Virus record (IMG/VR): IMGVR_UViG_2541047912_000003
DNA: 52,958 nucleotides
Strand: one strand, 5' to 3'
Origin: a virus
Lineage: Duplodnaviria > Heunggongvirae > Uroviricota > Caudoviricetes
A model generated the notes under the pieces. The model had not been told where the DNA came from, ran no database searches, and was given only the letters and a program-made list of their open reading frames with translations. The position numbers and the translations under genes were made by a program. Positions 12,076 to 32,520 of the stretch are shown here, one piece after another; positions within the stretch are counted from its first letter, which is position 1; the number at the start of each line of letters is the position of its first letter.

Positions 12076-12090
12076 CGCTGACTCTCCGGA

Positions 12091-12831
12091 TTAACTGGCG
12101 GTGACGGTGATTTCTGCAACCGCAGCAAACTCACCATTACCGGATACAACCGGAATGTTGACCCTGCCTGCAGCAACGCCGTTCACGGTGATGGTCATAC
12201 CACTGACCGACACGGTGGCTTTTGTTTTATCCGCAGACACCGCACGGAAGCTCTTGTCGGTTGCGCCTTCCGGCTGGAATGCCACGGTCAGCGTCGTGCT
12301 CTGCCCTTTCACCACCGAGGTGCTGGCAGGCGTCACGGTCATGCCGGTTGCCGCTGTGACCGTGCTGCGATCTTCTGCCATCGACGGGCGTCCCACATTG
12401 GTGACCTTCACCGTGCGGGTGATCACTTCCTTCGCCGTCACCGCTTTACCGATACTGCTGACCCAGCCACGGAACACATCGACCGTGCCGTTCGGGAAGC
12501 GGATTTTATAGGCACGGGTATCACCTTCATTAAACCACGCCAGCAGCGCCTGCTGCCCCTGTTCTCCGGGCATCCACGCCAGCGTGAAGCTGGTATCTCC
12601 GGCTGATTTCTGCCCCTGCCCGGTCGCAGTCCAGTCCGCATCTTCATCATCGAGATAGCTGTCGTCATAGGACTCAGCGGTCAGTTCGCCGGGCGTCAGG
12701 TCTTTAACTTTTGCCAGACGCGACCAGTCCACGTCTGAAAGCGGGTTCGCATAAGGGTCACCGTTCCCCTTATAAACCCACAGTGTGGTCCCGGCACCTT
12801 TCACCGGCATTGTAGGATTTGGTACAGGCAT
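12091..12831 (-). CDS. V: major tail tube protein V with C-terminal Ig-like domain
   Basis: Sequence from [20 protein letters not shown] matches lambda gpV (246 aa); the supplied ORF extends 10 codons further upstream. Confidence 0.9.
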
Positions 12832-12838
12832 ATCGTCC

Positions 12839-13234
12839 TCACATTTCATAGGTAATGACATAAGTCAGATCGGCTGAACTCCACAGGCCCGCATCATCGT
12901 CGCGTCGGTAGTCATAGCCACTGGCCACCATACTGGTGATCAAATCTGACAGTGCCGGGATATCGCTCATCACCGGATAAATCCGGGACTCCATCCACGA
13001 ATCCAGCGCTGAATCCGGCACCTGAGCAGGCAGGAAAACTTCAATATGCAGCTCCGCCTGCCAGGTATCGCTGTCCAGCTCTTCGCCCGTGTATTCAGCG
13101 CCGGTGAGATAAACGGCAATTGCCGGAAAATCCGCCTCATCAAAAACAGCGGGGCGACCATCAAAAAGCGTCGCCCCGGTGTCATATTTTTCCAGTGCAT
13201 CCAGTACGGCTGCACGGAGTTCAGTATGTTTCAT
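12839..13234 (-). CDS. U: tail tube terminator protein U
   Basis: 131 aa, matches lambda gpU. Confidence 0.95.
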
Positions 13235-13809
13235 CGCTTTATTACCATCCTCAGTTGATGCTGCAGCGCATAGCCCAGCTCTTTCGGAAGACGCTCACGC
13301 CGTATCCGCTCAATATTCTGTTTAAACGCCGTGGTCAGCGGCACCGCCATCGGAATTTTCACCACATCAATGGGGTAACGGTTTTTCCCGGCCACACGCT
13401 GCATGACATGCCAGCGGCCATTTTTCAGTTGCTGAATAAACGCGCCGGGAATACGACGGTTTCCCACCACAAGCACGCTGCCGCCACCTTTCAGGGATGA
13501 ACGCTGCCCCTTTTTACGACGCCTGCGTCGGGACAGGACAACCCGCGCGTTACCCAGCCTGATTACGGGCAAATCCCCCCGGTTAACTTTGATTCTGGCC
13601 TGCGGATTTTTGACTGTGGCCCTTTTCAGCCTGGCCCTTTCCTTTACCAGTTTCCGGCGTACCTTTGTCTCACGGGCAACCTGTGCCACCGACTGCGATA
13701 TCGCGGATGAAGCAACGCGGTTAATGGCCATTGCGGCGGCACCGGGCACCGCCGTTCTGCTGATACGGCTGAGGTTTTCAACGGCCTGCTCAAGACCTTT
13801 TATGGCCAT
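13231..13809 (-). CDS. Z: tail completion protein Z
   Basis: 192 aa, matches lambda gpZ (Arg-rich central region). Confidence 0.95.
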   Translation of the reverse strand: MAIKGLEQAVENLSRISRTAVPGAAAMAINRVASSAISQSVAQVARETKVRRKLVKERARLKRATVKNPQARIKVNRGDLPVIRLGNARVVLSRRRRRKKGQRSSLKGGGSVLVVGNRRIPGAFIQQLKNGRWHVMQRVAGKNRYPIDVVKIPMAVPLTTAFKQNIERIRRERLPKELGYALQHQLRMVIKR

Positions 13810-13820
13810 ACATCCCCCTT

Positions 13821-14174
13821 TCAGCGGCGACGGTTAACGGCAGGCGGTACGCCCCGCCCAAGCCAGAGATGACAGCTTCCGCCATCATCCGGCGAAATCC
13901 GGTCTATCCAGAAGTTTTCCTCACCGATGGTCAGCGTGTCGCCGCGCCGCAGCTGCCGCACATCATCAGTCCGGACAAACAGGGACGGGCTGGAGCCTTC
14001 AACGCGCACGCCCTGTCCGGCATAGCTGATATTTTCAGGGTCATCAAAAACACCACGTATCACAGCACCGGACTGCTCACCGGATGTCATGGTGGCTGAC
14101 GTTCCCATGTACCCGCGTATCGTTTCATCGGCGCAGGCAATGGCAGCATCGAACAGGTTATCGAAATCAGCCAC
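13821..14174 (-). CDS. FII: head-tail joining protein FII
   Basis: 117 aa, matches lambda gpFII. Confidence 0.95.
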   Translation of the reverse strand: MADFDNLFDAAIACADETIRGYMGTSATMTSGEQSGAVIRGVFDDPENISYAGQGVRVEGSSPSLFVRTDDVRQLRRGDTLTIGEENFWIDRISPDDGGSCHLWLGRGVPPAVNRRR

Positions 14175-14185
14175 AGCGCCTCCCG

Positions 14186-14581
14186 TTATTGTATTCTGGC
14201 CAGGCCGCGCTCTGTCATTTCAGCTGCCACACCGGCAGAGACACGGAACGCCGTTCCCGGCAGCACAAATGCCACAGCCTCATCCCGCGTGGCGTGAAGT
14301 GCATCAGTATGCAGCGTCACCAGTGCCACAACCGTGACCAGATCAGCCGTATCAGTCACGGTATCCGGCTGCGCTGATACAACCTCATTTTCATGTCCGG
14401 TCAGCACATTTTCCGGGCTGAGAGGGATATCCTGACCGGCAGTGTTGCCCGTGTCATCAAGCTCTTCTTCCAGTTCTGCCACACGGAGCGCCAGTTCTTC
14501 TTTCGTCCCCGTCAGGCTGATATCACGGTTCAGTTGTTCACCCAGCGAGCGGAGACGGGCAATCAGTTCATCTTTCGTCAT
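14186..14581 (-). CDS. FI: DNA packaging / head completion protein FI
   Basis: Sequence from MTKDELIARLRSLGEQL matches lambda gpFI (132 aa); the supplied ORF has a 13-codon upstream extension. Confidence 0.9.
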   Translation of the reverse strand: MTKDELIARLRSLGEQLNRDISLTGTKEELALRVAELEEELDDTGNTAGQDIPLSPENVLTGHENEVVSAQPDTVTDTADLVTVVALVTLHTDALHATRDEAVAFVLPGTAFRVSAGVAAEMTERGLARIQ

Positions 14582-14622
14582 GGACTCCTCCACAGAGAAA
14601 CAATGGCCCCGAAGGGCCATGA

Positions 14623-15412
14623 TTACGCCAGTTGTACAGACACGAACTCATCAGGGTCAGCCAGCAGCATCAGCGGTGCTGACTGAATCATGGTGAACTC
14701 ACGCGCCGGGTCGCCGGTGGTCACCCAGTTTTTCGGGTAACGGGCAGAGGCGTTAATGCCTTCGCGCTGTGCGTCCGCATCCTGAATGCAACCATAGGTG
14801 CGCAGACCGCGTGCCTGAGTGTTCCCCAGCACCATCGTGTTGTCCGGCAGGAAGTTCTTTTTGACGCCGTTTTCCACGTACTGTCCGGAATACACGACGA
14901 TGGCCACATCGCCATACATTCCCTTATAAGACACCGCTTTGCCCAGGTCTTTTACCGCTGTCTCCAGCTCGGAATGAGAGCCGCGACGGGTATCCAGCTT
15001 CTCCTTGACGGCTTTGAAGGAACGGAACAGCGCCCAGCCTTTCGGATCAAACACGATGATATTCACCACACCGCTGGCGTTCAGCGCGTAGGCTTCGATA
15101 TCGTCGGTCGGGTCATACGTGGACTTGTCACGCTTGCTCCACTCCGTGCCGCCGGACTGCGTGATGTTATTCGCCTCACTGCGGCCCATATCCACCTCAA
15201 CCGGATCGAAGGCTTCACCGGTCATGGTATATTTGCCCTTAAGCACGGCAGAAACTGCCTGCATCTCTTCGACCTGGGCAATCGCCAGATTTTCATCCAG
15301 CATATTCTGCCGAATAATACGGCGACGACGGTAAGCCGGGTCAGCCAGGTTCTGCGGATCTTCATCCGGCAGGCGACGCAGGGTCATCTGCGGATTCACC
15401 TCATGCTTGGGT
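14623..15412 (-). pseudogene. E: major capsid protein E, C-terminal ~260 codons, separated from its 5' part by a 10.7-kb insertion
   Basis: Translation PKHEVNPQMTLRRLPDEDPQ...FVSVQLA is collinear with lambda gpE from about residue 83 to the end; preceded in frame by a stop at the insertion junction. Confidence 0.9.
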
Positions 15413-15413
15413 T
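15404..15413. repeat. left copy of 10-bp direct repeat tgcttgggtt (putative att core, attL side)
   Basis: Identical 10-mer at 26130-26139; both lie exactly at the break in E. Confidence 0.7.
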
Positions 15414-15620
15414 ACATGAGTCAAATAGAAAAAAGATACTTGATTTAACAGAGATTTATTTTATAAATGAGAGGGTGCAGAATTACGTAGCAATACATGC
15501 TGCAATACATGGTTAGGGAAAAGCCTTCTTGGCATCGTACAAAAAACAAACCGAATTTTTTCTAACACAGCCAAGTAAAGCCTCCTTCACTTAATTAGTT
15601 AAATTATAAAGGAATATTCA

Positions 15621-16763
15621 ATGAAAATTTTTCTTGCTCATGCAAAAGAAGATGAAACGATAACTGAAGAAATCTATGAAAGGCTAAAAAGTGGAGGATA
15701 TTCCCCTTGGATGGATGTAAAAGATATACCCGCTGGCGTAAACTGGGATTATGAAATCCAAAAAAACTTCGCTAATTCAAACTTGATAATCCTTATCCTT
15801 AGCAAAGTGAGCACTCAGAAAAATGGTTATATTCGCCGCGAAATAAATGACGCCATTGATAAACTAAAGTATTACAAACCAGATGATGTGTTCGTGATAC
15901 CATTACTTATTGATGATTGCGAAGTACCCGCCTACATATCAAGCAAGCTCCAATTCATTGATTTTAAGAGAAATGATGGTTGGGACATTTTATCTAGATC
16001 TTTAAGATTAGCAGCATCGCAACAAAAACTTGAAATATCTCAAGGTATCACTTATGGGCCATTTAACTTTAGCAGCGAGGTTTTCAAGGAAGAATATAAC
16101 AAGATCCCAGGGCATGAAATTGAAATAGCATATCCAAGAATTGAAAGCCATACATTACCGAAATCAGCAAAACTCATTAGTGATTACTTTTCAGGAAAAG
16201 CGGCTTTACATATTTTTTCTGAACGCACATCACTATGGCCAGGAACACCATATTGGGATGAAGAATATAAACACACTTACACTAGTTCCTATAATGAAAG
16301 TTATAACATCTCATACTGTAACGAAAATGTTATGAGCATCCTTCATTCCGTACATTGGTATGGTGCGGGAGCAGCACACCCTAACAGTCATTTTGAAACT
16401 AGTAATTTCGTAATAACCAAGGATGACTACGCATACAAATTTAGTTTATGGGATGTATTTACCGAAGGGAAAGAGCAAGAAGCGATTAATAAGATAAAAC
16501 AAAAAATAATCTCTGAATCAGCTCGTGAATTTTGGGAGAAAACTGGTGAAAAACCAAGTGAGGACGACATTAGTACGTTTGCAACGGGTATCATGGATAG
16601 TAACTTAGACTCGTTCACAATAAATAGTGATGGATTTAGATTCCATTTTGCACCTTACGAAATTCATGCATATGCTTTTGGTTCTTGGGAATTCTTTATC
16701 TCATTCTTTGAAGTAATAGACTTCCTTAAAGAGGATGGAATTTACTCTCTAATAAGGAGTTAA
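15621..16763 (+). CDS. TIR-domain protein (380 aa) with ~250-aa C-terminal domain of unknown function; candidate defence/abortive-infection effector
   Basis: N-terminal ~120 aa (KIFLAHAKEDE, ILILSKVS, candidate catalytic Glu in RREINDA, VIPLLIDDCEVP) fit the bacterial TIR fold; AT-rich codon usage unlike flanking DNA; strong RBS aaggaa; C-terminal WYGAGAAHP motif loosely resembles the GGAH motif of DUF3298/RsiV-type domains (unverified). Confidence 0.7.
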   Translation: MKIFLAHAKEDETITEEIYERLKSGGYSPWMDVKDIPAGVNWDYEIQKNFANSNLIILILSKVSTQKNGYIRREINDAIDKLKYYKPDDVFVIPLLIDDCEVPAYISSKLQFIDFKRNDGWDILSRSLRLAASQQKLEISQGITYGPFNFSSEVFKEEYNKIPGHEIEIAYPRIESHTLPKSAKLISDYFSGKAALHIFSERTSLWPGTPYWDEEYKHTYTSSYNESYNISYCNENVMSILHSVHWYGAGAAHPNSHFETSNFVITKDDYAYKFSLWDVFTEGKEQEAINKIKQKIISESAREFWEKTGEKPSEDDISTFATGIMDSNLDSFTINSDGFRFHFAPYEIHAYAFGSWEFFISFFEVIDFLKEDGIYSLIRS

Positions 16764-17129
16764 CATTTCAATAAGCCTGAAATTTAATCAGGCTTATATA
16801 CATTTCCTTATGATTAAATTATTGCTGTTCTTAAGCAAAGATGCAGCCAGAAGTAATTCCCCCTCAAGCTTGCTTGCACACATAAAGAACTGACACAAAA
16901 CTCTGCTGTAAAGTTGTCTAGCCACACAGCAAAAAACATATGAAACTTTGTTATTCGCAAACTGCTTGCTCTATATTCCACCATCAAGGCGCATAAAGCA
17001 ATTGCAATGGCGCAGAAGTAGGCCATAACTATGAAGTGAAGCTAGCGGCGCGTTATTGGCCGCTTCTGAATAGGGCCTGATTCAACTCAGGGATAAGATT
17101 TTTTCTGGTGATAGACCGCGACGGATGGC

Positions 17130-17330
17130 AACAAAACCAGAGAAAGGAAACGACAGAGGCCAAAAAGCCTGTTTTTAGCACCTGTCGTTTCCTTTCTTTT
17201 TAGGGGGTGTTTTTAATAAAAACATTAAGTTACGGCGAAGAAGAACGGAAACGCCTTAAACAGGAAAATTTTCACAAATAGCAAAAAACTGCGCGCCTGA
17301 CGCCCCGTAGCCTGTCAGATCGCCGGAAAG
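17130..17330. other. satellite cos site (cosQ-cosN-cosB-like), paralogous to the prophage cos
   Basis: About 200 bp roughly 90% identical to 32340-32540 (aggaaacgacag, cacctgtcgtttcctttc, ttacggcgaagaagaacggaaacgcc blocks) in the same orientation; cosN-equivalent 12-mer at 17295-17306 (gcctgacgcccc) differs from the prophage's. Confidence 0.75.
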
Positions 17331-17361
17331 GACCCGCCAGCCAGAGCGGGCCCTAATTTCA

Positions 17362-17745
17362 TCAACCAATCAGCTTATAGCGACCATCCCGTGCATTGCG
17401 GCGTACACGCTCAATCTTGAGGCATAGCGCCGCATCTGGCTTTTTTGGGACAGGTACGCGGCAATATTCAGAAGCGCGAGGAATATTATTTATCCAGTCG
17501 ATCACTTCACTTAAATACCAGGCCTTACGCCCTTCCGTAACCTGCACACGCTCCGGGAACTCTCCACTAGCCTCAAGGTTTAGCAGTGTACGCCGACTCA
17601 GGGTTGTAATTTCCATCACCTGATTCATATCAACAAGGCGCTCGCTTAAACACATTTTGTCAGCGATAGCTTTTAATTCCTCTACAGCTGGATTCGGGTA
17701 CATCATTTCGGCAAGTGGCTTAAGGTCATTGTAATCATTCTGCAT
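17362..17745 (-). CDS. HTH protein (127 aa; AlpA/MerR-like winged helix), adjacent to satellite cos; possible packaging-redirection or regulatory protein
   Basis: C-terminal half (EITTLSRRTLLNLEASGEFPERVQVTEGRKAWYLSEVIDWI) resembles AlpA-type HTH and the Nu1 DNA-binding fold; strong RBS; last gene of the capsid operon next to cos. Confidence 0.5.
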   Translation of the reverse strand: MQNDYNDLKPLAEMMYPNPAVEELKAIADKMCLSERLVDMNQVMEITTLSRRTLLNLEASGEFPERVQVTEGRKAWYLSEVIDWINNIPRASEYCRVPVPKKPDAALCLKIERVRRNARDGRYKLIG

Positions 17746-17756
17746 TGTATCCCCCT

Positions 17757-18098
17757 TTACACACGAGCCAGCGGCTGAACAGAAATACCTGAGCCAACAA
17801 ACGCTGCAATCTTTACTGACAGTTCTTTTACAGACTCAGGCCAGTTCAGAGCATCAACATTTAAGACACCTGTCTTATAGACCTGAGCCTGTGTTTTTTT
17901 CGCGGTGTCGATTTGTACAGCGGAAACATAAACCGCTTTACCTACGCTCGAACCATCCCATACCACCAGTGCACCTGTTGCATCTTCCTGCATCAGTGGC
18001 GTAAATGCAGGAATTACCCCTTTATTAGCTGAAAATATCCCCAGCGTAGTCACCAGTGCTTCAGTGCCAGCCATGAGTTCAGTGTAATGAGTAGCCAT
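17757..18098 (-). CDS. head decoration protein (lambda D paralogue) encoded by the satellite
   Basis: 113 aa; shares the PLM...VVWDG...YKTG...WPE pattern with lambda gpD (26430-26762) but is divergent; strong RBS. Confidence 0.7.
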   Translation of the reverse strand: MATHYTELMAGTEALVTTLGIFSANKGVIPAFTPLMQEDATGALVVWDGSSVGKAVYVSAVQIDTAKKTQAQVYKTGVLNVDALNWPESVKELSVKIAAFVGSGISVQPLARV

Positions 18099-18107
18099 TG
18101 CTCCCCC

Positions 18108-19148
18108 TTAGCCAATGCGAACGGTAACAAAACGATTGATGCGGGCCGGTATTGGCTGTGGTGCTGAATGTGTCTGCACATATTCAATAGCCGGATCACC
18201 AGGCACAATATAGTTTTTCGGTGCAAGTTCGGCTTTAGTCAGCCCCATTCGGATTAGCTCCGGATCCTGAATACCGCCATAGGCGACAATCCCCTGAAGA
18301 GCCGTATTGCCAAGCACCATCAAATCAGGATCAAGGAAATGTTTTTCAGTTCCGTCCTCGTCGGTATAACGCCCGCTGTATACAACAATCGCAACATCGC
18401 CCATATACCCTTTAAAACTCACCGAATCACCAAGGTCTTTAAGGGCCGTTTCCAGTTCGGAATTAGAACCACGACGGGTATCCAGAGCCTCTTTTATCGC
18501 TCTGAATGAACGGTATTTCTTCCATACATTACCGCCCATAATGATGATATTAGTGACGCCCTCACTAAATTCTGCGTAGCTCTCAATATCATCATTTGGA
18601 TCAAAAGTTTCTTTATCCTTACCTGACCACTCAGTACCGCCAGACTGAGTGATGATATTTTGTGGTTTTATATTCCAGTCCAGCTCATAACGTTCAATAC
18701 CATCGCCCTCAATGATATTTTTCCCCGTTGTGATTGCCTGAACGGCAAGCCATTCAATACGTGCACGAATAGCTTTAGCCTGATTTACAATCGCCTGTTT
18801 AACTTTAATATTACGCGCTCCAAAAGCATTGTATTGCTCAGGTGATACACCAGCAGGGCGCACAGCTAACTTATTTGGATCAATGCTGCTTTTCGGCTTC
18901 ATATAGCCTGGACGAATTGTTTTTGATTCGTACCCTTCGTCACGTGAAACTTTACTACCTACCATAGGAGAACAAAACGCTGCAATTGGGATATTTGGAT
19001 CGTCGATTGTATCAAGAATAATATCGCGCGATTCAAACATTACCGAACGAGTAAAAAACAAACTGGTAAACAACGCATTTAGTTGTTTTTGTACATCTAC
19101 AGCATTAACCACCTGTACAAGCTGGGTAGGCGAATATAAATCAACCAT
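18108..19148 (-). CDS. major capsid protein (lambda E paralogue) encoded by the satellite
   Basis: C-terminal two thirds about 50% identical to lambda gpE (ITQSGGTEWS, DTRRGSNSELETA, YMGDVAIVVYSG); likely start at MVDLYSPTQ with AGAGGA RBS; the supplied ORF is extended upstream. Confidence 0.8.
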   Translation of the reverse strand: MVDLYSPTQLVQVVNAVDVQKQLNALFTSLFFTRSVMFESRDIILDTIDDPNIPIAAFCSPMVGSKVSRDEGYESKTIRPGYMKPKSSIDPNKLAVRPAGVSPEQYNAFGARNIKVKQAIVNQAKAIRARIEWLAVQAITTGKNIIEGDGIERYELDWNIKPQNIITQSGGTEWSGKDKETFDPNDDIESYAEFSEGVTNIIIMGGNVWKKYRSFRAIKEALDTRRGSNSELETALKDLGDSVSFKGYMGDVAIVVYSGRYTDEDGTEKHFLDPDLMVLGNTALQGIVAYGGIQDPELIRMGLTKAELAPKNYIVPGDPAIEYVQTHSAPQPIPARINRFVTVRIG

Positions 19149-19365
19149 ACGCATCCTCTTTGCATTCATTAAAAATAATTGTGGATATATGCTATCACCG
19201 ATATTTGTCATGCGAATACATGCAACCGAGTGCAATGTTGTATAAAGTTTTGGGATAACAACTCCAGCGCGGATAATTAGTGTTAATATCTTCACTCCCT
19301 TTGGTCGGGATTTATGTAGCATGCCGGAAAATTTATTTTTTTCCGGCCTTTTTTATTGGCAATAT

Positions 19366-19815
19366 TTAAAACGGAATATCATCTCCCCATTGCTCATTAT
19401 CTCCCACTGGTGGATGGCTTCCTTGCTGATCTGCCTGTTGTTTTGCTCTGTTCAGTGCGTCAGTAGCCTGACCCTGTTGACCTTTTTTGCCGCCCGGTCG
19501 CACCGTTCGCGCACTGATTACGCTGTCTGCGATAACCTGCCAGCCCTGCCGCGTTTCACCGTTCTGTCCAGTCCACTGGCTCACCTGCATATTACCCGCC
19601 ACGCTCAGGAGTTCGCCTTTGTGATGCTTTGCCAGCGCGTCGGCTTGTCTGCCAAACGCCAGGACAGATAACCACATCGTCGCCTGACCGTCATCCGACT
19701 GACTGCAGGGCAGTGATACCGCCATACGCGCCAGCGTCATGGGGGTGCCCTTGCTGGTCTGTTTTGTCTGCGGGTCGTCCACCAACCGCCCGTAAACTGA
19801 TATTTGCGCCGTCAT
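19366..19815 (-). CDS. ssb: single-stranded DNA-binding protein
   Basis: 149 aa, OB-fold-like N-terminus, Gly/Gln-rich linker and C-terminal acidic tip DDIPF; RBS present. Confidence 0.85.
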   Translation of the reverse strand: MTAQISVYGRLVDDPQTKQTSKGTPMTLARMAVSLPCSQSDDGQATMWLSVLAFGRQADALAKHHKGELLSVAGNMQVSQWTGQNGETRQGWQVIADSVISARTVRPGGKKGQQGQATDALNRAKQQADQQGSHPPVGDNEQWGDDIPF

Positions 19816-20057
19816 GCTGCCTGCTCTCCGGACTTAATATTGATTGTTGTCACTTCCTCCGCTTCAGCAATCTCCCGTTCGGTCAGAGTGGCAAAGTTTG
19901 CAGCCGCCGTTGTCATGAATGCGCTAATCAGTTCGGGATGTGCTTTCGCGTATCCTTCCCCGGCGTTGCGGTCGATGATTTTTATCGACACCCTTAACCA
20001 GTGTTCCGTCAAATCAAGGGCGTGCGATTGTGATTTTTTTGTGTGCTTCGCTGTCAT
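19812..20057 (-). CDS. hypothetical protein (81 aa), translationally coupled to ssb
   Basis: Stop overlaps the ssb start (ATGA); immediately downstream of the iteron region. Confidence 0.5.
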   Translation of the reverse strand: MTAKHTKKSQSHALDLTEHWLRVSIKIIDRNAGEGYAKAHPELISAFMTTAAANFATLTEREIAEAEEVTTINIKSGEQAA

Positions 20058-20099
20058 AGGCTTTATCTCACAGCAGTAAATTAAAATTTTTGCGTTTTA

Positions 20100-20335
20100 A
20101 CCCTTCACCTGTTCACCTTTTGATATTTTCTCTTTTAATTCATAATGTTAATGGGTGAACAGTTTCACAAAAACTATTCACCAACTGTTCACCACTGTTC
20201 ACCCTTGAAGCTCAATAAACAATCAAAAAGGTGAACAGTGAATAGTTTGGTGAACAGTTCATAAATAACTGTTCACCCTATAATATACTGATATAAAAGA
20301 TATTTATGACAGGGTGAACAGTGGTGAACAGTTAT
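20100..20335. repeat. iteron cluster (about 10 copies of TGTTCACC / GGTGAACAG in both orientations); putative satellite replication origin
   Basis: Motif recurs throughout 20103-20330 in an AT-rich context, immediately downstream of the primase-helicase gene. Confidence 0.75.
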
Positions 20336-20344
20336 TCCATAAGT

Positions 20345-22165
20345 TTAATTTTTGCTATCGTCATTAGTGACCGATACACATGATGGCATCCAGTCTTCTG
20401 ATTCCTCCGTCAGGGTCACGTTTGAACGCAAACCGTGCTTCGTTTTCCGTTTCATATACTCCCTGCCATATTCCGCCATTGCCCCCGGCATATCTTTACC
20501 GAAGCGCGTCAGTGTTACAGGTTTACCAAACCCATGTGCCCTCATATAAGCCAGATAGGCATGATAGAGATACCTGCGTGGGCTGAATGGCACAATTTCA
20601 GCATTACCCACTAACAGGCCATCACACATTACCGATGCCATGAGATAACCGCAGAAGTCCACCAGCGAATCCCCCTCTCGCTTTATCGCCAGTGCTTCTT
20701 CAGATTTCTGCTGCTCATATAACAGGCGTCTGGCTTCGTCCTGATCAGCAAACCTTGTAAGCAGATGACGAATCACTACCGCCAGCTCACCTTCTATTTT
20801 TTCCGCCAGCATCGAATCGCGTTCGTTCTCCGGTACAACTTCCGAAAAATTGAATATCACCCGACGACGTGAGATCCCCCCGCTGCGGTCACTGAATGAC
20901 ATGGCGTTATTGTTAACCGCCAGCACTACTGCCGGAATACGCGTTGAATAGGGGGCTTTGTGTTTCGGGTCAATTGCCACCTTGTCACCGCCTGTAATGG
21001 CCTTAATCCCTGCCCCATCACCAGCGTAGCGGGTCATATCCGGCATGATAATCAGCGAAAAGCCAACCACTAACGCACGTTCCCTTGCATCTTCCAGCGC
21101 CTTCATGCTTGCTGATACTGTATTAGCCTTACCCGCCAGCATGGTGCAAATCTCCGCCATCACACTTTTACCACTTCCCCCCGGCCCTGTTACCTCAATG
21201 AATAACTGCCAGTCGTACCGGTTCGCCAGCACCATGAATAATGCCGCCAGTACGCGATCTGCCTTGCGGTCATTCTCAGCCACCGAACGGCGCAACCACT
21301 TCCAGAAATTCGGCGCATGTGTTGCCAGCGTTTCCCCCTCTGCTGGTGGGCTGAAAGGTAATTCACTGGCAATTAACAACCAGTCGTTTTTGTTATGCTC
21401 CCGAAAATTACCAGTTCTGGTATCAAATACCCCGTTACTGAATCCAATCAGGTTACGGGCTGTATTCCCCATTACAGGCAAACTTAACTTCATGGTATCT
21501 ACCGCCGATTTAATAGCGTTCTGCGAATAGCTGATCTCCGCATCAATGAAAATCTGCGCCATAGCACGCTGTAACTCTTTATCCTGAACCGGCTCCCATA
21601 CAACGCCGTTGTAATGATGAACGGTGTCAGAGTCGGCATTGATTGCCAGTTCGCCGCCGTAATGTGCAAGGAGAACTTCACCGCGCTGGCTGGCCCCCAT
21701 CTGATTCAACGCCAAAGATGAAGCACGCTCGTCATTTTTGCGCTCAGCCTTCTTCACTGGCAGTTCAATCACCAGACTTTCCCCATGCTCCGCTTCAGCT
21801 TTTAGGCCGACAAGGCGCGGAGTCCAGTCTTCAGGCTCTCGATCAACAAAGCTACGGTAACAACGTGCTTCCTTTACGCCTGCAATAGCAAGTAATGTCG
21901 CAACCTTCGTCAGATTTTTCTCTGCAATCTTTCCGGCACGATAAACACGCACATAATGACGGCCTTCATCGATAATTTGCATATCATCCAGGTTTTCCAG
22001 TTGTTCCGTACCCAGAATTACTGGTGGTGTATCATCTGCTGCAATATGCTTACCCGCCCATTCATTCCATTCTTTTGCATGGCTCCAGGCATCACTGCCA
22101 GCAAAAATGATGACTTCTGTCATTTTGTCGCGCGGTTGGTATTTTAAGTTCGGAGCACGTTTCAT
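20345..22165 (-). CDS. replication primase-helicase (P4/PICI-type, P-loop NTPase)
   Basis: 606 aa with Walker A GPGGSGKS and downstream Walker B-like hydrophobic-acidic stretch; GGAGG RBS; adjacent iteron origin. Confidence 0.8.
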   Translation of the reverse strand: MKRAPNLKYQPRDKMTEVIIFAGSDAWSHAKEWNEWAGKHIAADDTPPVILGTEQLENLDDMQIIDEGRHYVRVYRAGKIAEKNLTKVATLLAIAGVKEARCYRSFVDREPEDWTPRLVGLKAEAEHGESLVIELPVKKAERKNDERASSLALNQMGASQRGEVLLAHYGGELAINADSDTVHHYNGVVWEPVQDKELQRAMAQIFIDAEISYSQNAIKSAVDTMKLSLPVMGNTARNLIGFSNGVFDTRTGNFREHNKNDWLLIASELPFSPPAEGETLATHAPNFWKWLRRSVAENDRKADRVLAALFMVLANRYDWQLFIEVTGPGGSGKSVMAEICTMLAGKANTVSASMKALEDARERALVVGFSLIIMPDMTRYAGDGAGIKAITGGDKVAIDPKHKAPYSTRIPAVVLAVNNNAMSFSDRSGGISRRRVIFNFSEVVPENERDSMLAEKIEGELAVVIRHLLTRFADQDEARRLLYEQQKSEEALAIKREGDSLVDFCGYLMASVMCDGLLVGNAEIVPFSPRRYLYHAYLAYMRAHGFGKPVTLTRFGKDMPGAMAEYGREYMKRKTKHGLRSNVTLTEESEDWMPSCVSVTNDDSKN

Positions 22166-22449
22166 TTATTACCTCCGGCAACTAACATTGCCCGAATTTT
22201 GCGGATATAGCCTGCGGCACGCCTCTGATTATCTGTCTTGCAATTTTTTACCAGAATGAAATCTCTTTCGAACTGCTGACGCGGCATAACACATTCAAAA
22301 TCATAACCATCACGCAAATAAGAGACACGGCGATCATCAACCGAAATAATCTTTACCCGATAGCCATAGCTATCTTTGAAAATATCCCCAAGGCTGATTT
22401 TTGAATGAGCTTGACCGCTGGCAATAAAGCCAGAAAATTTATTTTTCAT
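22162..22449 (-). CDS. hypothetical protein (95 aa) in the satellite replication operon
   Basis: RBS GGAGAA; stop overlaps the primase start. Confidence 0.5.
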   Translation of the reverse strand: MKNKFSGFIASGQAHSKISLGDIFKDSYGYRVKIISVDDRRVSYLRDGYDFECVMPRQQFERDFILVKNCKTDNQRRAAGYIRKIRAMLVAGGNK

Positions 22450-22451
22450 TT

Positions 22452-22676
22452 TTATTCTCCGGTATAGCTCTGGTCGTGTATTTTTATAGCTTCATCCAGC
22501 TCTTTGATGACAGGATCAAGTAACGTAATTAACGCTCCAGCTAAATTAGCATCCCGTTCATCGTGTTCCGCATTTGTTGTCCCATCAAGCCAGGTTGATA
22601 AGATTTCTCGCATATTTTTGCCACAAACGAGCGCGTTTTCAGCATGTGTCAGCACTTTAAAATAAAGATCATTCAT
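22452..22676 (-). CDS. hypothetical protein (74 aa) in the satellite replication operon
   Basis: RBS GGAGG 7 nt upstream; tightly packed with neighbours. Confidence 0.5.
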   Translation of the reverse strand: MNDLYFKVLTHAENALVCGKNMREILSTWLDGTTNAEHDERDANLAGALITLLDPVIKELDEAIKIHDQSYTGE

Positions 22677-23034
22677 GGCACACCTCCTGACGAATACGGG
22701 CGGCGAATATCATCACGCAGCCAGTTGGGGATTGCTGGCGGGCTTCCTGTTCGCTGGTGGCCTCGATGGTAATCACGCGCGGTTGTGTCGTACTCAGGGC
22801 GATAAAACGCCAGAGGAAATTGTTTTCACATTTCTGAATAAACAGCGTGTTTTCTTCCCGCCCTTTCCAGAAAGCCGCAGTATAGCCCATCTCCTTAACC
22901 ATCTTGCGGGCATCAACCAGCGTGTCAGCGGCTACATGTACCGTAGTTGCTCCATCTGCTATGCGATCGCGATGTAGCGCCAGAAAGATGTATATAAATT
23001 TAGGGTGAGTTTGGGTATGCTGTGTTCCAGCCAT
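22669..23034 (-). CDS. hypothetical protein (121 aa), first gene of the minus-strand satellite operon
   Basis: Internal Met of the 304-aa supplied ORF with GAGG RBS; the upstream extension is Ser/Arg-rich and overlaps a convincing plus-strand gene. Confidence 0.5.
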   Translation of the reverse strand: MAGTQHTQTHPKFIYIFLALHRDRIADGATTVHVAADTLVDARKMVKEMGYTAAFWKGREENTLFIQKCENNFLWRFIALSTTQPRVITIEATSEQEARQQSPTGCVMIFAARIRQEVCHE

Positions 23035-23039
23035 AATCG

Positions 23040-23240
23040 TTACCTCGTTTAACGGTTTGGTTAGAAGCCCGGTTAGTGTTCGCGCACTGCCGGGTTTCGT
23101 CGTTTTTATGAATCGATCATTGTGAGATACATAGCGACCATAATGTGAGATATACATTATATTGTGGTGATATACATTGCAAGTGTTTTTATATCTCACT
23201 TTTGTGTATAGTGATATACACATAACAAATTGGTGATTAA
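23040..23240. promoter_or_regulatory. divergent promoter/operator region of the satellite with repeated TGAGATA(T)ACAT-like motifs
   Basis: Several copies of gtgagatacat / gtgagatatacat / gtgatatacat between divergent genes at 23034 (minus) and 23243 (plus). Confidence 0.5.
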
Positions 23241-23242
23241 CT

Positions 23243-23545
23243 ATGTCTGTATACAAAAATGCAAAATCGCAAATGACAACGATCAGGGTTCCCCACGATG
23301 TTATGGAGGGCATGGAATCCGTAAAACTGGACGGCGAAAGCAACGCCGGATTCATAGTAACCGCCATGCGCGGTGAGATCGCCCGCCGCCAGGCAGAAGG
23401 AAGCGGAGAAAATCCCCTCGTGTCTTCACTGGATGCCTTAGCTAAGGTCGAACAAATCGGCATCAAGGCAGCGGAGGAAATCGGGCAACTCGTAGCCGTC
23501 GCTCGTGAAGAACTCCAGCGGCGTAAAGCCAAAGAATCTGAATAA
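23243..23545 (+). CDS. hypothetical regulator (100 aa), divergently transcribed from the satellite replication operon
   Basis: Charged, helix-rich protein adjacent to the operator repeats; position expected for a satellite repressor; no family recognised. Confidence 0.5.
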   Translation: MSVYKNAKSQMTTIRVPHDVMEGMESVKLDGESNAGFIVTAMRGEIARRQAEGSGENPLVSSLDALAKVEQIGIKAAEEIGQLVAVAREELQRRKAKESE

Positions 23546-23895
23546 TTAGTATCAGCGCCGTGATGTGAGTAACTACGGCGCATTGCTATGTAAATACTGG
23601 CAATAAACAGAAAAGGTAGTTCTACTCCGAATAATTTTATCTGACACTACTCCTAAACTAACATGCGCTTATCTTACAGGATATAAATATAAATCCATAA
23701 AATCACGATTAAATAAAGTCGCTCCAAATATAAACCACACCCAACGCTTAACAAGATAGCAACAAACAGATAAATAACTTGCAGAAATATTTATCGCAAG
23801 GATTATCATTATTAATGACAAATCACTTTACCAAGTCATTCCCCTCTCTTATCATAAAGAGAAAGTAATAAATAAGTTAAGGGAGTTAGAATGCT

Positions 23896-24432
23896 ATGAA
23901 TCTAAAAAAAATAGCCACAAACACAAAAAACAAGATAACAGAAACATTCAATAAACTTATATTAGAGGCATCTAAAACCCCCACACAAGATGAAATTAAA
24001 ATACTTGAGAGAAGGAGTAAGAAGTTTAATTACTCCTTTTTCTCATACGCAGTCACAGGAGCTATAATAGTTTTTTGCTCTCAACCATTAATAAAATACG
24101 CAAACCCAATACTTATTTTATTGAGTGGCCTGCTATTGTCTCTCACCATTATCCACCTCAGAATTCTTTATATTTCACAAACAAATAGATCATGGACAAA
24201 AAATAAAAAAACTGCATATATTATTTTAATTTTATCTGTATGTTTCCTAGCGTCAACATTGACGTTGCTATATCAGGCTTACGATAATAACATCACACAC
24301 AAATTGTACTGTAAAAATATACAACAACTTATTGAAAAAAGGATAGAAACAGAAAAAAACATCAGCATATTCAGTGGAATGCAATGCACCCCGGTATATG
24401 ATTACTCTTTATTTGGATTTAATCTCTTATAA
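23896..24432 (+). CDS. AT-rich integral membrane protein (178 aa, about 3-4 TM segments); cargo gene of the satellite
   Basis: Hydrophobic segments (AVTGAIIVFCSQPLI, ILILLSGLLLSLTIIHL, AYIILILSVCFLASTLTLL); very AT-rich relative to neighbours. Confidence 0.55.
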   Translation: MNLKKIATNTKNKITETFNKLILEASKTPTQDEIKILERRSKKFNYSFFSYAVTGAIIVFCSQPLIKYANPILILLSGLLLSLTIIHLRILYISQTNRSWTKNKKTAYIILILSVCFLASTLTLLYQAYDNNITHKLYCKNIQQLIEKRIETEKNISIFSGMQCTPVYDYSLFGFNLL

Positions 24433-24440
24433 AGAATGTT

Positions 24441-24476
24441 ATTACTGATTTGAGTACAAATTCTCAAATCAGTAAT
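24441..24476. terminator. perfect 14-bp inverted repeat hairpin between convergent genes (likely bidirectional terminator)
   Basis: attactgatttgag / ctcaaatcagtaat arms with 8-nt loop, followed by a T-rich tract. Confidence 0.6.
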
Positions 24477-24501
24477 TCATAATATTTTATTCTGAGATAA
24501 T

Positions 24502-24738
24502 TTAAACTACCCACTCACCTCGAATCCATGCCTGCACTTCTGAAAGACGATATGCAACAGCAGTGGAACCAATCTTGATCCGCTTAGGAAATTTTCCTTC
24601 CTTCTCCAGCTTCCAGCGTGTGCTGTTCGCAAGAGTGGTTAGCTCCCGACATTCTTTCTCACGGATCATTCGGTCAATGTTAGGAATGTACTCCAGACCC
24701 TTTTTATCAACAATTGCCATTTTTTTCATGTTAACCAA
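24502..24738 (-). CDS. alpA: AlpA-family excisionase/transcriptional regulator
   Basis: 78 aa, HTH (ELTTLANSTRWKLEKEGKFPKRIKIGSTAVAYRLSEVQAWI) typical of AlpA/Xis; immediately downstream of int. Confidence 0.8.
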   Translation of the reverse strand: MVNMKKMAIVDKKGLEYIPNIDRMIREKECRELTTLANSTRWKLEKEGKFPKRIKIGSTAVAYRLSEVQAWIRGEWVV

Positions 24739-25966
24739 CCTTTTGTTTGAGGATCGTCACTTTTGAATCAGCACCTGCGATGCTATTGAGATATGTAGTC
24801 CAGAGTTCCAGAGCATCCAGTTTTTTAGCCATAAACTTACTCCGGTTGTAAACACCTGCCACGCCAGGTAGCGCATGGCCTAACAGTTGTTCTACTACAT
24901 AAAATTCAACACCGAGATCACTTAGATGAGTAGATAGCGTTCTTCTAAGGTCGTGTAGTGACCATTGTTTTTCATGGCCCAAACGTTTACCGATTTTCCC
25001 CCCAATCTTGCTTACGCTTTCTCTAATTCGCAGACTTCCCAGCACATAACCAGTATGTTTTGTCTCTTCGTGAACATCCGTTACCCACTGTCGTAGAATT
25101 TCAGGTACTGGTCTGACGATTTCAACACCAGTTTTTGAGTGATCTTTTGGTACAGTCCAAACCCAACTTTCGAGATCCCATTCGCTCCATTCTGATAATC
25201 GGGCTTCACTCATTCGACATCCAAATACTGTACAAAGCACAAACATTTTTCGCGTGTATTCAGACATTAGTTTTAAATCAGGCTCGACAAAAATTGCCTT
25301 CCAGAGCTGGCCGAGTTCGGCTTCATCCAGAACCCGATCCCGCTTACCTGCAATCTGCCCCACATCACTCATGCGCAAATCCTTTAAAGCATCACACGTC
25401 GCGTACTGGCGTACCCGACAAAAACGAAGAGCTAATTTAGTGTCAGAAAAAACATACGCCGCCATAACTGGTGCATTACGTTTAATTCGGTCAAAACAGT
25501 CCAGCCATTCATATAGGTGAGTGTCATTTACGGGCAAATGACCGATATAGGGAAAGATATGCTTTCGAAATCTGCCAAGCGTTACAGCATGAGTTTTACG
25601 ACGCACCTTACAGTAATTTTCATACCAGTAATTTAGTGCATCCTCCACTGTGACCGGCTTTAAGCGTTCTTCAGCCTGAATCTTAATCTGGATACGCGGA
25701 TCACGTTTGTCAGCCAACCAACCACGGCACTCGTCGCGCTTTTCCCTTGCCTGTTTGAGTGACATATCAGGATATTTACCCAACGTTAGCCAGACCGGAG
25801 CAGCCCGGCCACCTGCTAACCTGTAGAAGAAAACAAAGCTCACAGCCCCTTTAGTACTCACACGAATAGAAAGCCCCTTTCCATCAGCAATGGTGATCTG
25901 CTTTTCTCTGGGTTTCCCCAGATATCCTTTAAGCGCTTTGTCGCTCAGTTTGTTCTCGCCAGCCAT
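24731..25966 (-). CDS. int: tyrosine integrase (P4-type) of the satellite
   Basis: N-terminal arm-binding region, catalytic region with HDLRRT and HxLGH-like (LLGHA) motifs and terminal Tyr (VYNRSKF); start taken at MAGENKLSD. Confidence 0.85.
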   Translation of the reverse strand: MAGENKLSDKALKGYLGKPREKQITIADGKGLSIRVSTKGAVSFVFFYRLAGGRAAPVWLTLGKYPDMSLKQAREKRDECRGWLADKRDPRIQIKIQAEERLKPVTVEDALNYWYENYCKVRRKTHAVTLGRFRKHIFPYIGHLPVNDTHLYEWLDCFDRIKRNAPVMAAYVFSDTKLALRFCRVRQYATCDALKDLRMSDVGQIAGKRDRVLDEAELGQLWKAIFVEPDLKLMSEYTRKMFVLCTVFGCRMSEARLSEWSEWDLESWVWTVPKDHSKTGVEIVRPVPEILRQWVTDVHEETKHTGYVLGSLRIRESVSKIGGKIGKRLGHEKQWSLHDLRRTLSTHLSDLGVEFYVVEQLLGHALPGVAGVYNRSKFMAKKLDALELWTTYLNSIAGADSKVTILKQKVG

Positions 25967-26098
25967 TTTTAGCCCCAAAAAGCAATACAAGCTGCAATAC
26001 AGAGATGATTGCAACACACAGATAACGAGGAAAATTCAGTGAAAGCGCCAGATAAATTTATTCTTTATTATCAAAAGATTAAGTGTAAAAACCAGCAA

Positions 26099-26374
26099 CT
26101 ACACGAAAGCCTCAGAAAGCCATGCTAAGTGCTTGGGTTTGACATAACCCGGCGTAAATTCAGAGGTGGAGCCGCCACGGGATCGGATAACCTCACCGGA
26201 AACAATCGGCGAAACGTACAGCGCCATGTTTACCAGTCCCGGAATTTGTGAGAGATAGACTTTTTCCGTGGTGAAAGGATAGGTTTCACGGAAAAACAGG
26301 CGCAGAAACAGCGGATCGAACTTAAAGTGATGCTGGGTCGATGCCAGTAATTCTGCAGTTGTATATACAGACAT
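26099..26374 (-). pseudogene. E: major capsid protein E, N-terminal 82 codons, fused in frame to 9 codons of satellite DNA
   Basis: MSVYTTAELLASTQHHFKFDPLFLRLFFRETYPFTTEKVYLSQIPGLVNMALYVSPIVSGEVIRSRGGSTSEFTPGYVKPKH matches the lambda gpE N-terminus, then diverges (LAWLSEAFV, stop) at the junction. Confidence 0.9.
26130..26139. repeat. right copy of 10-bp direct repeat tgcttgggtt (putative att core, attR side)
   Basis: Identical to 15404-15413; encodes the PKH codons present at both E fragment ends. Confidence 0.7.
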
Positions 26375-26429
26375 AAATTATTTCCATAAAAAAAGCCGCA
26401 CAGGCGGCCTTTGTTGATGAAGGGGAAGA

Positions 26430-26762
26430 TTAAACGATGCTGATTGCCGTTCCGGCAAACGCGGTCCGTTTTTTCGTCTCGTCGCTGGCAGCCTCCGGCC
26501 AGAGCACATCCTCATAACGGAACGAGCCGGACTTGTAGAACGTCAGTGTGGTGCTGGTCTGGTCAGCAGCAACCGCAAGAATGCCAACGGCTGCACCGTC
26601 GGTGGTGCCATCCCACACAACCAGCTTACGGGTAGTGCCATCCAGCATCAGTGGGGTCATTGCAGGCGTTTTCGCACTCAATCCGCCAGGCGCAATTGCT
26701 GTATGAGCCGGATCACTGTTACCCAGCGGCTGGTAATGGTTAAACTCTTCTTTTGTCGCCAT
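26430..26762 (-). CDS. D: head decoration protein D
   Basis: 110 aa, matches lambda gpD. Confidence 0.95.
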
Positions 26763-26771
26763 AACTGCCTC

Positions 26772-27179
26772 TTATACCGGTAAAGCTTCAGGTGTATTAA
26801 GTAATTCTTTATTGGTATCAGATGCCAGGTTACCTGCAGCCAGCGGTGCCGGTGCACCCTGCATCAGACGATCCAGCGCAGTGTCACTGCGCGCCTGTGC
26901 ACTCTGTGGTGCTGCGGCCAGAATGCGGCGGGCCGTTTCCACGGTCATTCCGGGGGTTTCTGCCAGAACGCGCGCCTGTTCTTCGCGTCCGTGAGCCTCC
27001 TCACAGTTGAGGATCCCCATAATGCGGCTGTTTTCTGCCGCAACCGCTGCGGTGATCTGTGCGTTCACATCCGGCTGCGCCGCGCTGGCGTTTTCGCCCT
27101 CCTTCGCAGGCTCCACGGTGGTGATGTCAGCCTGCGAAGCAGTGGCTGAAACAGTTGTTGATTGAGTCTCTTTGGTCAT
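26772..27179 (-). CDS. Nu3: capsid scaffolding protein Nu3 (nested in frame within the 3' part of C)
   Basis: In-frame internal Met (MTKETQSTTVSA...) sharing the C stop, as in lambda C/Nu3; exact start not verifiable from sequence alone. Confidence 0.6.
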   Translation of the reverse strand: MTKETQSTTVSATASQADITTVEPAKEGENASAAQPDVNAQITAAVAAENSRIMGILNCEEAHGREEQARVLAETPGMTVETARRILAAAPQSAQARSDTALDRLMQGAPAPLAAGNLASDTNKELLNTPEALPV

Positions 27180-28083
27180 TCGCCCTCCTGAGAGACGGGA
27201 TTTACGTGCATCCAGTGCATCACGCATGACGGTGATCGCATCGCTGCTGTTAACAAGTTCATCAGCCAGTCCGGCATCAATGGCCTCCTGACCGCTGTAC
27301 ACTGCAGCCTCGGTATCCAGCACAGCCTGCACAGACAGGCCGGTATATGCCGACACCTTCTGCGCAAACATCTGGCGGGTTGCGTCCATCCGGGACTGCA
27401 GTGTCTCCCGGACGTCATCCGGAAGATGGCTGTAGGGATTGCCATCCACCTTATGGCTGCCGCTGTAAATCAGCGTGATTTCCACACCCTGTTTCTCCAG
27501 GACAGCACCGTAATTACTGTGAGCCATCATGACGCCGATGGAGCCTGTCCGGGCGGTCTGCGTGACCAGACGCCGGGAGGCGGCACTGGCAAGCAGCTGA
27601 CCTGCACTGCAGTTCATGTCGTTGGCCAGCGCCCATACCGGTTTTATGTCACGCACACGGGCGATGATGTCAGCGCAGTCAAATGCCCCCGCCACCATTC
27701 CGCCTGGCGTGTCCATATCGAGCAGAATGCCGTCCACCATCGGGTCGCTGGCAGCCTGTTGCAGACGGGCGATAATGCCGTTGTAACCGGTCATCCCCGA
27801 GTACGGCTGCAGCGCCCGCGTCCGGCTGACCAGCGTGCCGGACACCGGCAGCACGGCGATGCCGTTCATGACCTGATAACTCCGGGCCTGTCGTGGTCCG
27901 TCATCATCACCGGATAATGCCAGCGTCGCGAGTGCCTCCTGGGCAGTCAGGCTGTCGCCGGACACCGCATCCGTCAGGCGGCTGATCCCAAGCTGGCCTG
28001 CAAGCGCACAAAAGAAAACCCGCGCATAGGCGGGTTCAAGCATCAGCGGCTCATTAAAGGCCATGCTGGCAATATGCGGGAGA

Positions 28084-28103
<20 letters not shown>
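26772..28103 (-). CDS. C: prohead protease / minor capsid protein C
   Basis: Matches lambda gpC from VTAELRNLPHIASMAFNEPLM (GTG start inferred); the supplied ORF extends upstream into B. Confidence 0.85.
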
Positions 28104-31784
<3,681 letters not shown>

Positions 31785-31810
<26 letters not shown>

Positions 31811-32330: not shown

Positions 32331-32339
32331 TGTTCATTC

Positions 32340-32520
32340 CACGGACAAAAACAGAGAAAGGAAACGACAGAGGCTAAAAAGCCCGTTTTCAGCACCTGTC
32401 GTTTCCTTTCTTTTCAGGGGGTGTTTTAAATAAAAACATTAGGTTACGGCGAAGAAGAACGGAAACGCCTTAAACCGGAAAATTTTCATAAATAGCGAAA
32501 ACCCGCGAGGTCGCCGCCCC
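32340..32520. other. cos: prophage cos site (cosB R-site/IHF region and cosN)
   Basis: Reverse complement of the lambda left-end sequence; cosN 12-mer GGGCGGCGACCT is the reverse complement of 32508-32519 (aggtcgccgccc); lies immediately upstream of Nu1. Confidence 0.85.

Follow-up and report, generated by a model that had tools for sequence, protein, structure and literature searches.

A likely copy of the helper-embedded satellite 11capE within the split capsid gene E of an icd prophage of Escherichia coli

Results

The split capsid gene and its 10-bp core

The stretch of DNA analysed here (hereafter the window) is the 52,958-bp IMG/VR virus record IMGVR_UViG_2541047912_000003, assigned to the Caudoviricetes, and the element in question is a 10,716-bp satellite insert (15414-26129) located within E, the gene for the major capsid protein, in a lambda-type prophage, its presumed helper. 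The insert has mostly 30-51% G+C, compared with 52-64% in its flanks, and is bordered by two copies of the 10-mer TGCTTGGGTT, at 15404-15413 (attL core) and 26130-26139 (attR core), which form the identity block of the attachment sites. The 10-mer is present only these two times in the window, while 0.22 copies were expected from shuffled sequences and two copies were reached in 1 of 100 shuffles. The flanks of the two copies are unrelated to each other on both sides.

Both copies are situated at the break points of E, which is on the minus strand, where the repeat reads AACCCAAGCA and spans codons K79 (in part), P80, K81 and H82 (in part). The C-terminal part of E (14623-15413, minus strand; ORF 15399-14623) extends from the second half of codon 79 to the stop and includes the attL core. 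It is open for 262 codons from the core, is 100% identical to the major capsid gene of phage Perceval, and is labelled 'major capsid protein, missing N-terminus' in RefSeq. The N-terminal part (26130-26374, minus strand) contains codons 1-82, matching positions 1-78 in Pfam's Phage_cap_E profile, and is read as a 91-aa open reading frame (ORF; 26374 to 26099), in which the 82 E codons are followed by nine foreign codons from the satellite and a stop at 26099.

When 26374-26140 was joined to 15413-14623, the 1,026 nt obtained were in frame and uninterrupted, encoding a 341-codon E that contains PGYVKPKHEVNPQ and matches Phage_cap_E over the whole profile (E-value 7.5e-70). The 10-bp block is located at approximately position 80 of this profile; in Pfam as it now stands, position 78 is the last one that the N-terminal fragment matches. 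The rejoined protein is identical at 328 of 341 positions to a sequence of lambda E, a number to be taken as indicative only. As judged from the joined sequence, recombination at the core would restore E exactly. A sequence-only reading of the window had placed two halves of a lambda-type E about 10.7 kb apart with the same 10-mer at both junctions, and had proposed that excision restores the gene exactly. The exact repeat positions were confirmed, the halves rejoin in frame, failure of which it had named as refuting, and its boundaries for the two halves were right except that the C-terminal part reaches 15413 and not 15412. There is no replacement E sequence in attP, so the helper is unable to make its capsid protein while the satellite is integrated.

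The helper prophage and the empty site

An empty version of the site is found in phage Perceval (OV696612). Positions 10270-15413 of the window align to Perceval 11524-6381 and positions 26130-32519 to Perceval 6390-1. The overlap between these blocks is the 10-mer and nothing more, and in Perceval the 10-mer is single-copy and located inside an intact E. Over the aligned blocks the helper is 95-99.97% identical to Perceval, with the block on the side of the E N-terminus at 99.97%. E. coli LF82 harbours Perceval as its icd prophage, and E is intact in the LF82 chromosome as well (NC_011993 1201412-1202437). Perceval has been propagated as plaques (bioRxiv 10.1101/2022.10.28.514194). The search for empty sites that the sequence-only reading had called for was therefore successful, with the site empty in Perceval and LF82, identical flanks, and the 10-mer present once.

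In strain 22KM0354, which is 100% identical to the window, the composite of helper and satellite lies between an icd fragment and icd. The window itself begins right after sitD (1-2751 region), and its final base (52958) is also that of the helper integrase gene; the moron region sitABCD and the icd attachment sites therefore fall just outside it. Pseudogene annotation in the helper is confined to E and one theta-subunit gene.

Two closely related adherent-invasive E. coli strains share this icd prophage: in LF82 its E is intact, and in NRG857c the satellite occupies it. Perceval plaques were obtained from LF82, whereas none were obtained from NRG857c (Tommasini et al.). The two strains, one with the empty and one with the occupied site, are a natural pair for experiments left unfinished in the original study.

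Identity with a published helper-embedded island

An 11-kb island in the lambda-type capsid gene of the icd prophage of E. coli NRG857c, Eco567.11capE, has been described with a 10-bp attL/attR identity block and its own capsid gene (Tommasini, Mageeney and Williams 2023, NAR Genom Bioinform 5:lqad036; PMC10111431). In the same study 201 instances were mapped at the site E:Phage_cap_E:80, and 11capE became the founding example of the class of 'helper-embedded PICI' (HE-PICI; PICI, phage-inducible chromosomal island). After treatment of NRG857c with mitomycin C, the composite leaves icd and replicates, and the satellite then excises precisely, at 2-3 h, from 42-98% of helper copies; excision was demonstrated by quantitative PCR (qPCR) and deep sequencing, including junction-spanning reads (PMC10111431).

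The element in the window is very close to this island. Its integrase is identical to that of the NRG857c 11capE at 409 of 411 positions, its AlpA and primase share their protein accessions with those in NRG857c, and over 85% of an 11.5-kb query the identity to NRG857c is 99.2%, the differences being the cargo genes beside attL. The arm-type sites also correspond. A doubled motif, TGTATTGCagcaTGTATTGC (minus strand, 15490-15509), has its nearest edge approximately 81.5 bp from the core centre, and a second doubled TGTATTGC motif in the same orientation (minus strand, 25982-26001) has its nearest edge approximately 133.5 bp from it. The published distances of the doubled TGTATTGC motif from the attP centre are 81 +/- 2 bp on the upstream side and 132 +/- 2 bp on the downstream side (PMC10111431). 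The HE-PICI-specific doubled motif tgTGTATTGCantgTGTATTGCa has exactly two matches in the window against 0 expected.

The orientation and order of genes are also those of the published group. The int, alpA, primase and capsid paralogue genes share the minus strand with E and with the D, FI, portal and terminase genes that flank it. The order int-alpA, followed by membrane protein, YlcI and Icd-like genes, then primase, origin and single-stranded DNA-binding protein (SSB), and lastly capsid, decoration, a second AlpA (AlpA2) and cos, fits the four zones of Integration, Bro/dynamic, Replication and Late, but neither a Bro-N domain nor a C4/isrK RNA was detected.

Prevalence and conservation of the junctions

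A 210-nt probe for the integrase-side junction was covered over at least 80% of its length in 173 of 5,426 complete E. coli genomes, hence approximately 3% of E. coli carry this junction, and a further ~3,200 genomes match the probe in its E half alone. At least 27 genomes cover 80% or more of the complete 11.5-kb region, four with 100% identity; 22KM0354, Z0117EC0036 and MEI3O-23 are all 100% identical there. Since copies vary in their cargo, full coverage of the cargo-side junction probe was seen in no more than 16 genomes. The sequence-only reading had asked whether other genomes hold the element at the same site, and these counts answer this.

Thirty-five junction sequences from E. coli genomes and IMG/VR contigs (22 attL, 10 attR and 3 attB) were compared. 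The 10-bp core was invariant in 22/22 attL, 10/10 attR and 3/3 attB, and the C-terminal part of E was open to its stop in all 17 complete cases. Synonymous differences in the E flanks indicate different helper backgrounds. The recurrence of the junctions, together with the open C-terminal parts, rules out that the assembly is at fault and speaks against an insertion that is a dead end in decay.

Gene content of the insert

From the right junction, the minus strand carries int-alpA, an Icd-like gene, genes for a 74-aa and a DUF4222 protein, a primase-helicase gene, iterons, genes for an 81-aa protein and SSB, paralogues of E and D, AlpA2 and cos. The plus strand carries genes for a membrane protein and a YlcI/YnfO protein and, beside the left junction, the TIR cargo gene. 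The inventory of the sequence-only reading, a P4-type integrase with AlpA at the right junction, a primase-helicase, iterons, SSB, capsid paralogues and a cos-like site, is thus borne out.

The tyrosine integrase (24731-25966, minus strand) belongs by sequence identity to the 11capE/HE-PICI clade and has the Arm-DNA-bind_3, SAM-like and catalytic domains of Pfam. It is adjoined by AlpA, an excisionase or regulator (24502-24729, minus strand; Phage_AlpA, E-value 2.8e-15). Between alpA and the YlcI gene, an islet of 30% G+C encodes a 178-aa predicted multi-pass membrane protein (23896-24432, plus strand), which matched no family above cut-off in Pfam, PHROGs or PADLOC; the gene is kept in the NRG857c and TUM1886 copies. 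It is followed by the YlcI/YnfO family protein (23243-23545, plus strand; NCBIfam NF041551, E-value 8.5e-20; phrog_6522) and the Icd-like, or host cell division inhibitor-like, protein (22669-23034, minus strand), which scores above cut-off with NCBIfam phage_ICD_like (E-value 6.6e-23) and also matches PHROG 'transcriptional repressor' families (E-value 4.5e-30). PADLOC gave no match for the membrane, YlcI and Icd-like proteins. The 74-aa protein (22452-22676, minus strand) matches phrog_2196 (E-value 4e-35) and the DUF4222 protein (22162-22449, minus strand) its Pfam family (E-value 3.4e-22).

The 606-aa primase-helicase (20345-22165, minus strand) has the Pfam domains D5_N, DUF5906 and Pox_D5 with a P4-family primase C-terminal domain, and matches NCBIfam TIGR01613 under the cut-off of that model (E-value 3.5e-27). 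Just downstream of its gene is a candidate replication origin (20099-20337), AT-rich and with GGTGAACAGT / ACTGTTCACC repeated approximately 12 times in both orientations; nine matches to the 9-mer GGTGAACAG or its complement lie there and one elsewhere in the window. The 81-aa protein (19812-20057, minus strand) matches phrog_1231 (E-value 2e-48) and nothing in Pfam, and is followed by SSB (19366-19815, minus strand; Pfam SSB, E-value 2.6e-16).

Two genes of the satellite resemble structural genes of the helper. The 346-aa E paralogue (18108-19148, minus strand; Phage_cap_E, E-value 1.1e-41) is identical to helper E at 143 of 349 positions (41%), and the D paralogue, a head decoration protein (17757-18098, minus strand; Pfam HDPD, E-value 4.4e-15), is identical to helper D at 43 of 120 (36%). 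The E paralogue lacks the att core, having AGCCGAAAAG and not AACCCAAGCA at the homologous site, and this divergence would prevent self-integration, as PMC10111431 states. The last protein before cos is a second AlpA-family protein of 127 aa (17362-17745, minus strand; Phage_AlpA, E-value 7.6e-9; phrog_2790, E-value 2e-49), which in the Protein Data Bank (PDB) matches the AlpA structure 8c3t (E-value 2e-9). No portal, protease, connector, tail, lysis or terminase genes were found among the ORFs of the insert.

Two cos sites with different cohesive ends

The helper cos (32345-32550, minus strand) has its cosN, GGGCGGCGACCT, at 32508-32519, upstream of Nu1 (31785-32330), and the Perceval genome record begins with the same 12-mer. 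The satellite carries a cos region with cosQ-, cosN- and cosB-like parts (17131-17336, minus strand), which is co-oriented with the helper cos and 89.8% identical to it over 206 bp; the identity in the cosB part is approximately 90%. The position of the 12-nt cohesive end (17294-17305) is occupied in the satellite by GGGCGTCAGGCG.

All five copies fetched from E. coli have this cosN variant, and it was also found in 73 complete genomes (short probe) and in 53 IMG/VR contigs. Among lambda-like phages a minority have it. Four of these contigs (L012, L047, L050 and L062) are lambda-like phage cos sites with the variant, located beside Nu1. In the three with terminase genes within the fetched DNA (L012, L050 and L062), Nu1 and gpA were 98.9-100% identical to those of the resident helper, compared over the full length in L012 and, in L050 and L062, over the whole of Nu1 but only residues 1 to 130-150 of gpA. 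One terminase type therefore evidently serves both cohesive-end alleles, and the resident terminase probably cuts the satellite cos. A cosN specific to the satellite was considered and rejected, as the same allele is found in the four lambda-like phage contigs. A megablast search of GenBank phages with the variant cos gave no match, which is a weak negative as linear phage records split cos across their ends.

The cargo slot and a candidate antisense RNA

The cargo gene beside attL (15621-16763, plus strand) encodes 380 aa with the Pfam domains TIR_2 (aa 3-122) and DUF3298 (aa 278-362). PADLOC matched the TIR part only, and the TIR domains of TIR-APAZ proteins in the PDB were matched with an E-value of 4e-8. 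The gene is a candidate for an anti-phage defence that consists of a single gene. What lies between attL and cos differs from copy to copy, with TIR_2 and DUF3298 here, DUF262 and HEPN in NRG857c, Abi and a small terminase in TUM1886, and DUF2971 elsewhere. Such a variable, defence-like slot is in keeping with the defence hotspots that satellites are known to carry. We found no paper linking DUF3298, a TIR domain and phage.

A structured RNA candidate of 73 nt that resembles SymR (23029-23101, plus strand) is antisense to the start codon of the Icd-like gene. It scored 35.3 bits with Rfam RF01809, below the gathering score of 61, and is predicted to fold into two hairpins followed by a U-run, with a minimum free energy of -33.8 kcal/mol and a z-score of -5.95 on the plus strand versus -2.5 on the minus strand. 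In the more diverged copy L043, the region of the second hairpin has a different sequence and is still an inverted repeat.

The text of PMC10111431 is silent on TIR, cosN, cohesive ends, LF82 and Perceval, and has 'defense' only in the title of a reference. The variable cargo slot, the antisense RNA candidate over the Icd-like gene, and the difference in cohesive-end alleles are not described there.

Discussion

The insert in the window is best explained as a copy of the published helper-embedded PICI 11capE, a satellite inserted by its own integrase at approximately codon 80 of E in a Perceval-like icd prophage, and we put the probability of this reading at roughly 0.93. As far as sequence can tell, all the defining features of the 11capE group are present, although no Bro-N domain or C4/isrK RNA was detected. 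The sequence-only reading had recognised a phage satellite inside its helper's capsid gene and had tied its excision to helper reactivation, which agrees with the precise excision after mitomycin C published for NRG857c. It had also taken this choice of target as undescribed, and here it was mistaken, as a near-identical element was published in 2022-2023. The arrangement, in which a viral parasite takes the capsid gene of its virus captive and gives it back only on leaving, is striking, but it belongs to that earlier work. The window contributes one more copy of a known element; an instance is added and not a discovery.

Several observations weigh against this reading or against parts of it. 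A Pfam search of the insert proteins found no Bro-N domain, and no C4/isrK (P4 CI) immunity RNA was found, with no Rfam match even at an E-value of 10 in the 650-nt control region. Promoter and terminator scans of the insert gave counts no higher than in shuffled sequences. The satellite cohesive end GGGCGTCAGGCG differs from that of the resident helper, GGGCGGCGACCT, at 5 of 12 positions, and a packaging redirector of the Rpp type was not detectable by sequence, the 127-aa protein beside cos matching no Rpp chain in the PDB. In NRG857c, Tommasini et al. recovered neither helper nor satellite virions (PMC10111431), and the timing of events in the window copy is carried over from that strain.

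With these points in mind, the following course of events can be proposed. After SOS induction, by analogy with NRG857c, the composite would excise and replicate first and the satellite would follow later. Helper late transcription may run through D and the E stub into int-alpA and so time the excision, as proposed in PMC10111431; as the promoter and terminator scans were uninformative, this read-through from the helper late operon is deduced from gene orientation. The composite is ~57 kb in 22KM0354, roughly 123% of the helper length, which gives a helper of ~47 kb, and going by the packaging limits of lambda it would be too long to package. The excised satellite could then replicate from the iteron origin with its own primase-helicase and SSB, and the helper terminase could package it via its lambda-like cos. 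In heads of helper size it would probably be packaged as multimers, and four copies (43 kb) would fill one head. Packaging and transfer in the 11capE family are putative. In the lysogen, the TIR cargo may serve as a defence gene.

The difference between the two cohesive ends could also be functional, with 'cohesive-end incompatibility' keeping two cos replicons in one cell apart, a tentative idea that we consider doubtful and that is absent from PMC10111431. If true, helper and satellite concatemers would be kept from joining. Mixed helper and satellite ends would not anneal. In the unexcised composite the satellite cos is ~15 kb downstream of the helper cos and co-oriented with it, and a cut from the helper cos to the satellite cos would leave ends unable to anneal.

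The same difference in cosN bears on the possibility that the resident prophage is only a landing site and that the productive helper is another lambda-like phage with the GGGCGTCAGGCG allele. The satellite cosN departs from that of the resident helper and matches the contigs L012, L047, L050 and L062. However, Nu1 and gpA are 98.9-100% identical to those of the resident helper in the three comparable phages, the satellite cosB is ~90% identical to the cosB of the resident helper, and the attachment site exists in this helper type only, so a different productive helper is unlikely. A distinctly improbable alternative is that the satellite inactivated the prophage when it inserted, leaving an immobile, vertically inherited remnant without regulated excision. 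NRG857c gives no plaques, and many helpers of such satellites look truncated (PMC10111431), as would be expected of a dead end. Here, by contrast, the integrase, AlpA, both att arms and both halves of E are intact; the C-terminal part of E is open in 17/17 cases, and the synonymous differences in the helper flanks point to several lineages. The helper is also 95-99.97% identical to the plaque-forming Perceval over the aligned blocks and is free of flagged pseudogenes other than E and the theta-subunit gene, and the sister element in NRG857c was measured to excise precisely and late (PMC10111431).

The class of the element can also be questioned. The architecture of the integrase, which is that of the P4 family, AlpA, and the P4-family C-terminal domain of the primase could suggest a P4-like satellite, and the satellite's own capsid and decoration genes a capsid-forming PICI (cf-PICI), in place of a classical Gram-negative PICI. 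Yet no equivalents of sid, psu, delta or epsilon were found in Pfam or PHROGs, and genes for a portal, protease, head-tail connector or terminase, without which the satellite cannot build a head alone, are missing from the insert. The gene order moreover matches the published PICI zones (PMC10111431), which makes assignment to either of the other classes very improbable. A chimeric assembly, in which both junctions would be artefacts, was the other refuting outcome named in the sequence-only reading. We found no point in its support and give it virtually no chance, as the same 11.5-kb architecture recurs in at least 27 independently assembled complete genomes (four at 100% identity), the integrase-side junction in 173 genomes, and junction-spanning reads and qPCR have been published for NRG857c (PMC10111431).

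Among known systems, Eco567.11capE is the closest. Gene order, the position of the cos-like site, the type of helper (icd-integrated and Perceval-like) and the 10-bp core are shared, and apart from the cargo beside attL (TIR_2 and DUF3298 here, DUF262 and HEPN in NRG857c) the two are ~99% identical. Gram-negative PICIs including EcCICFT073 (Fillol-Salom et al. 2018; 2019, PMC6739421) share the order of int-alpA, primase and origin, capsid and cos, and a lambdoid cos helper, and like them the window copy has no terS. With 10.7 kb (10-15 kb is typical), int, alpA, a primase with iterons and cos, and no lysis or tail genes, the element has the general features of this group. PICIs of the EcCICFT073 type, however, have chromosomal genes as their integration sites and affect the helper solely in trans, while the window element is in a helper gene. 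They redirect packaging by Rpp and a divergent cosB, whereas here no Rpp homologue is detectable by sequence and cosB is ~90% like that of the helper. The 127-aa protein beside cos was considered for this role and rejected at the sequence level, as it matched AlpA only and no RppC chain.

With satellite phage P4 the element has in common a related integrase family, a regulator of AlpA type, a primase domain of the P4 family and, probably, dependence on a helper for packaging through cos. In contrast to P4, the window element lacks sid, psu, delta and epsilon as judged by Pfam and PHROGs, its helper is lambdoid and not P2-like, and its site is a helper gene and not a tRNA gene. A satellite-encoded major capsid protein is found in cf-PICIs (Alqurainy et al. 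2023; bioRxiv 10.1101/2022.09.08.507074), but these encode a complete head and packaging module (capsid, protease, portal, connectors and the terminase small subunit/HNH), whereas the window element has only E- and D-type paralogues. Of P4-like features (the core set being psu, delta, sid, epsilon and alpha) it has just the integrase, AlpA and the primase domain. The cf-PICI head module is absent, and so, as judged by sequence only, is Rpp-type redirection. A gene that is split without replacement and restored by timed, precise excision is also seen in regulated gene integrity or 'active lysogeny' (phi10403S in comK of Listeria and skin in sigK of Bacillus); the interrupted gene here, however, is that of the helper phage, and the regulation serves the satellite.

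Within the family, the IMG/VR loci L010-L062 include satellites with capsid, decoration and AlpA2 proteins that are ~99-100% identical, yet with primase alleles only 43-49% or 85-87% identical to that of the window, and the integrase of one of them, L018, is just 53% identical to that of the window. Near-identical late proteins beside divergent primase and integrase alleles indicate that replication and integration functions are swapped as modules within the family.

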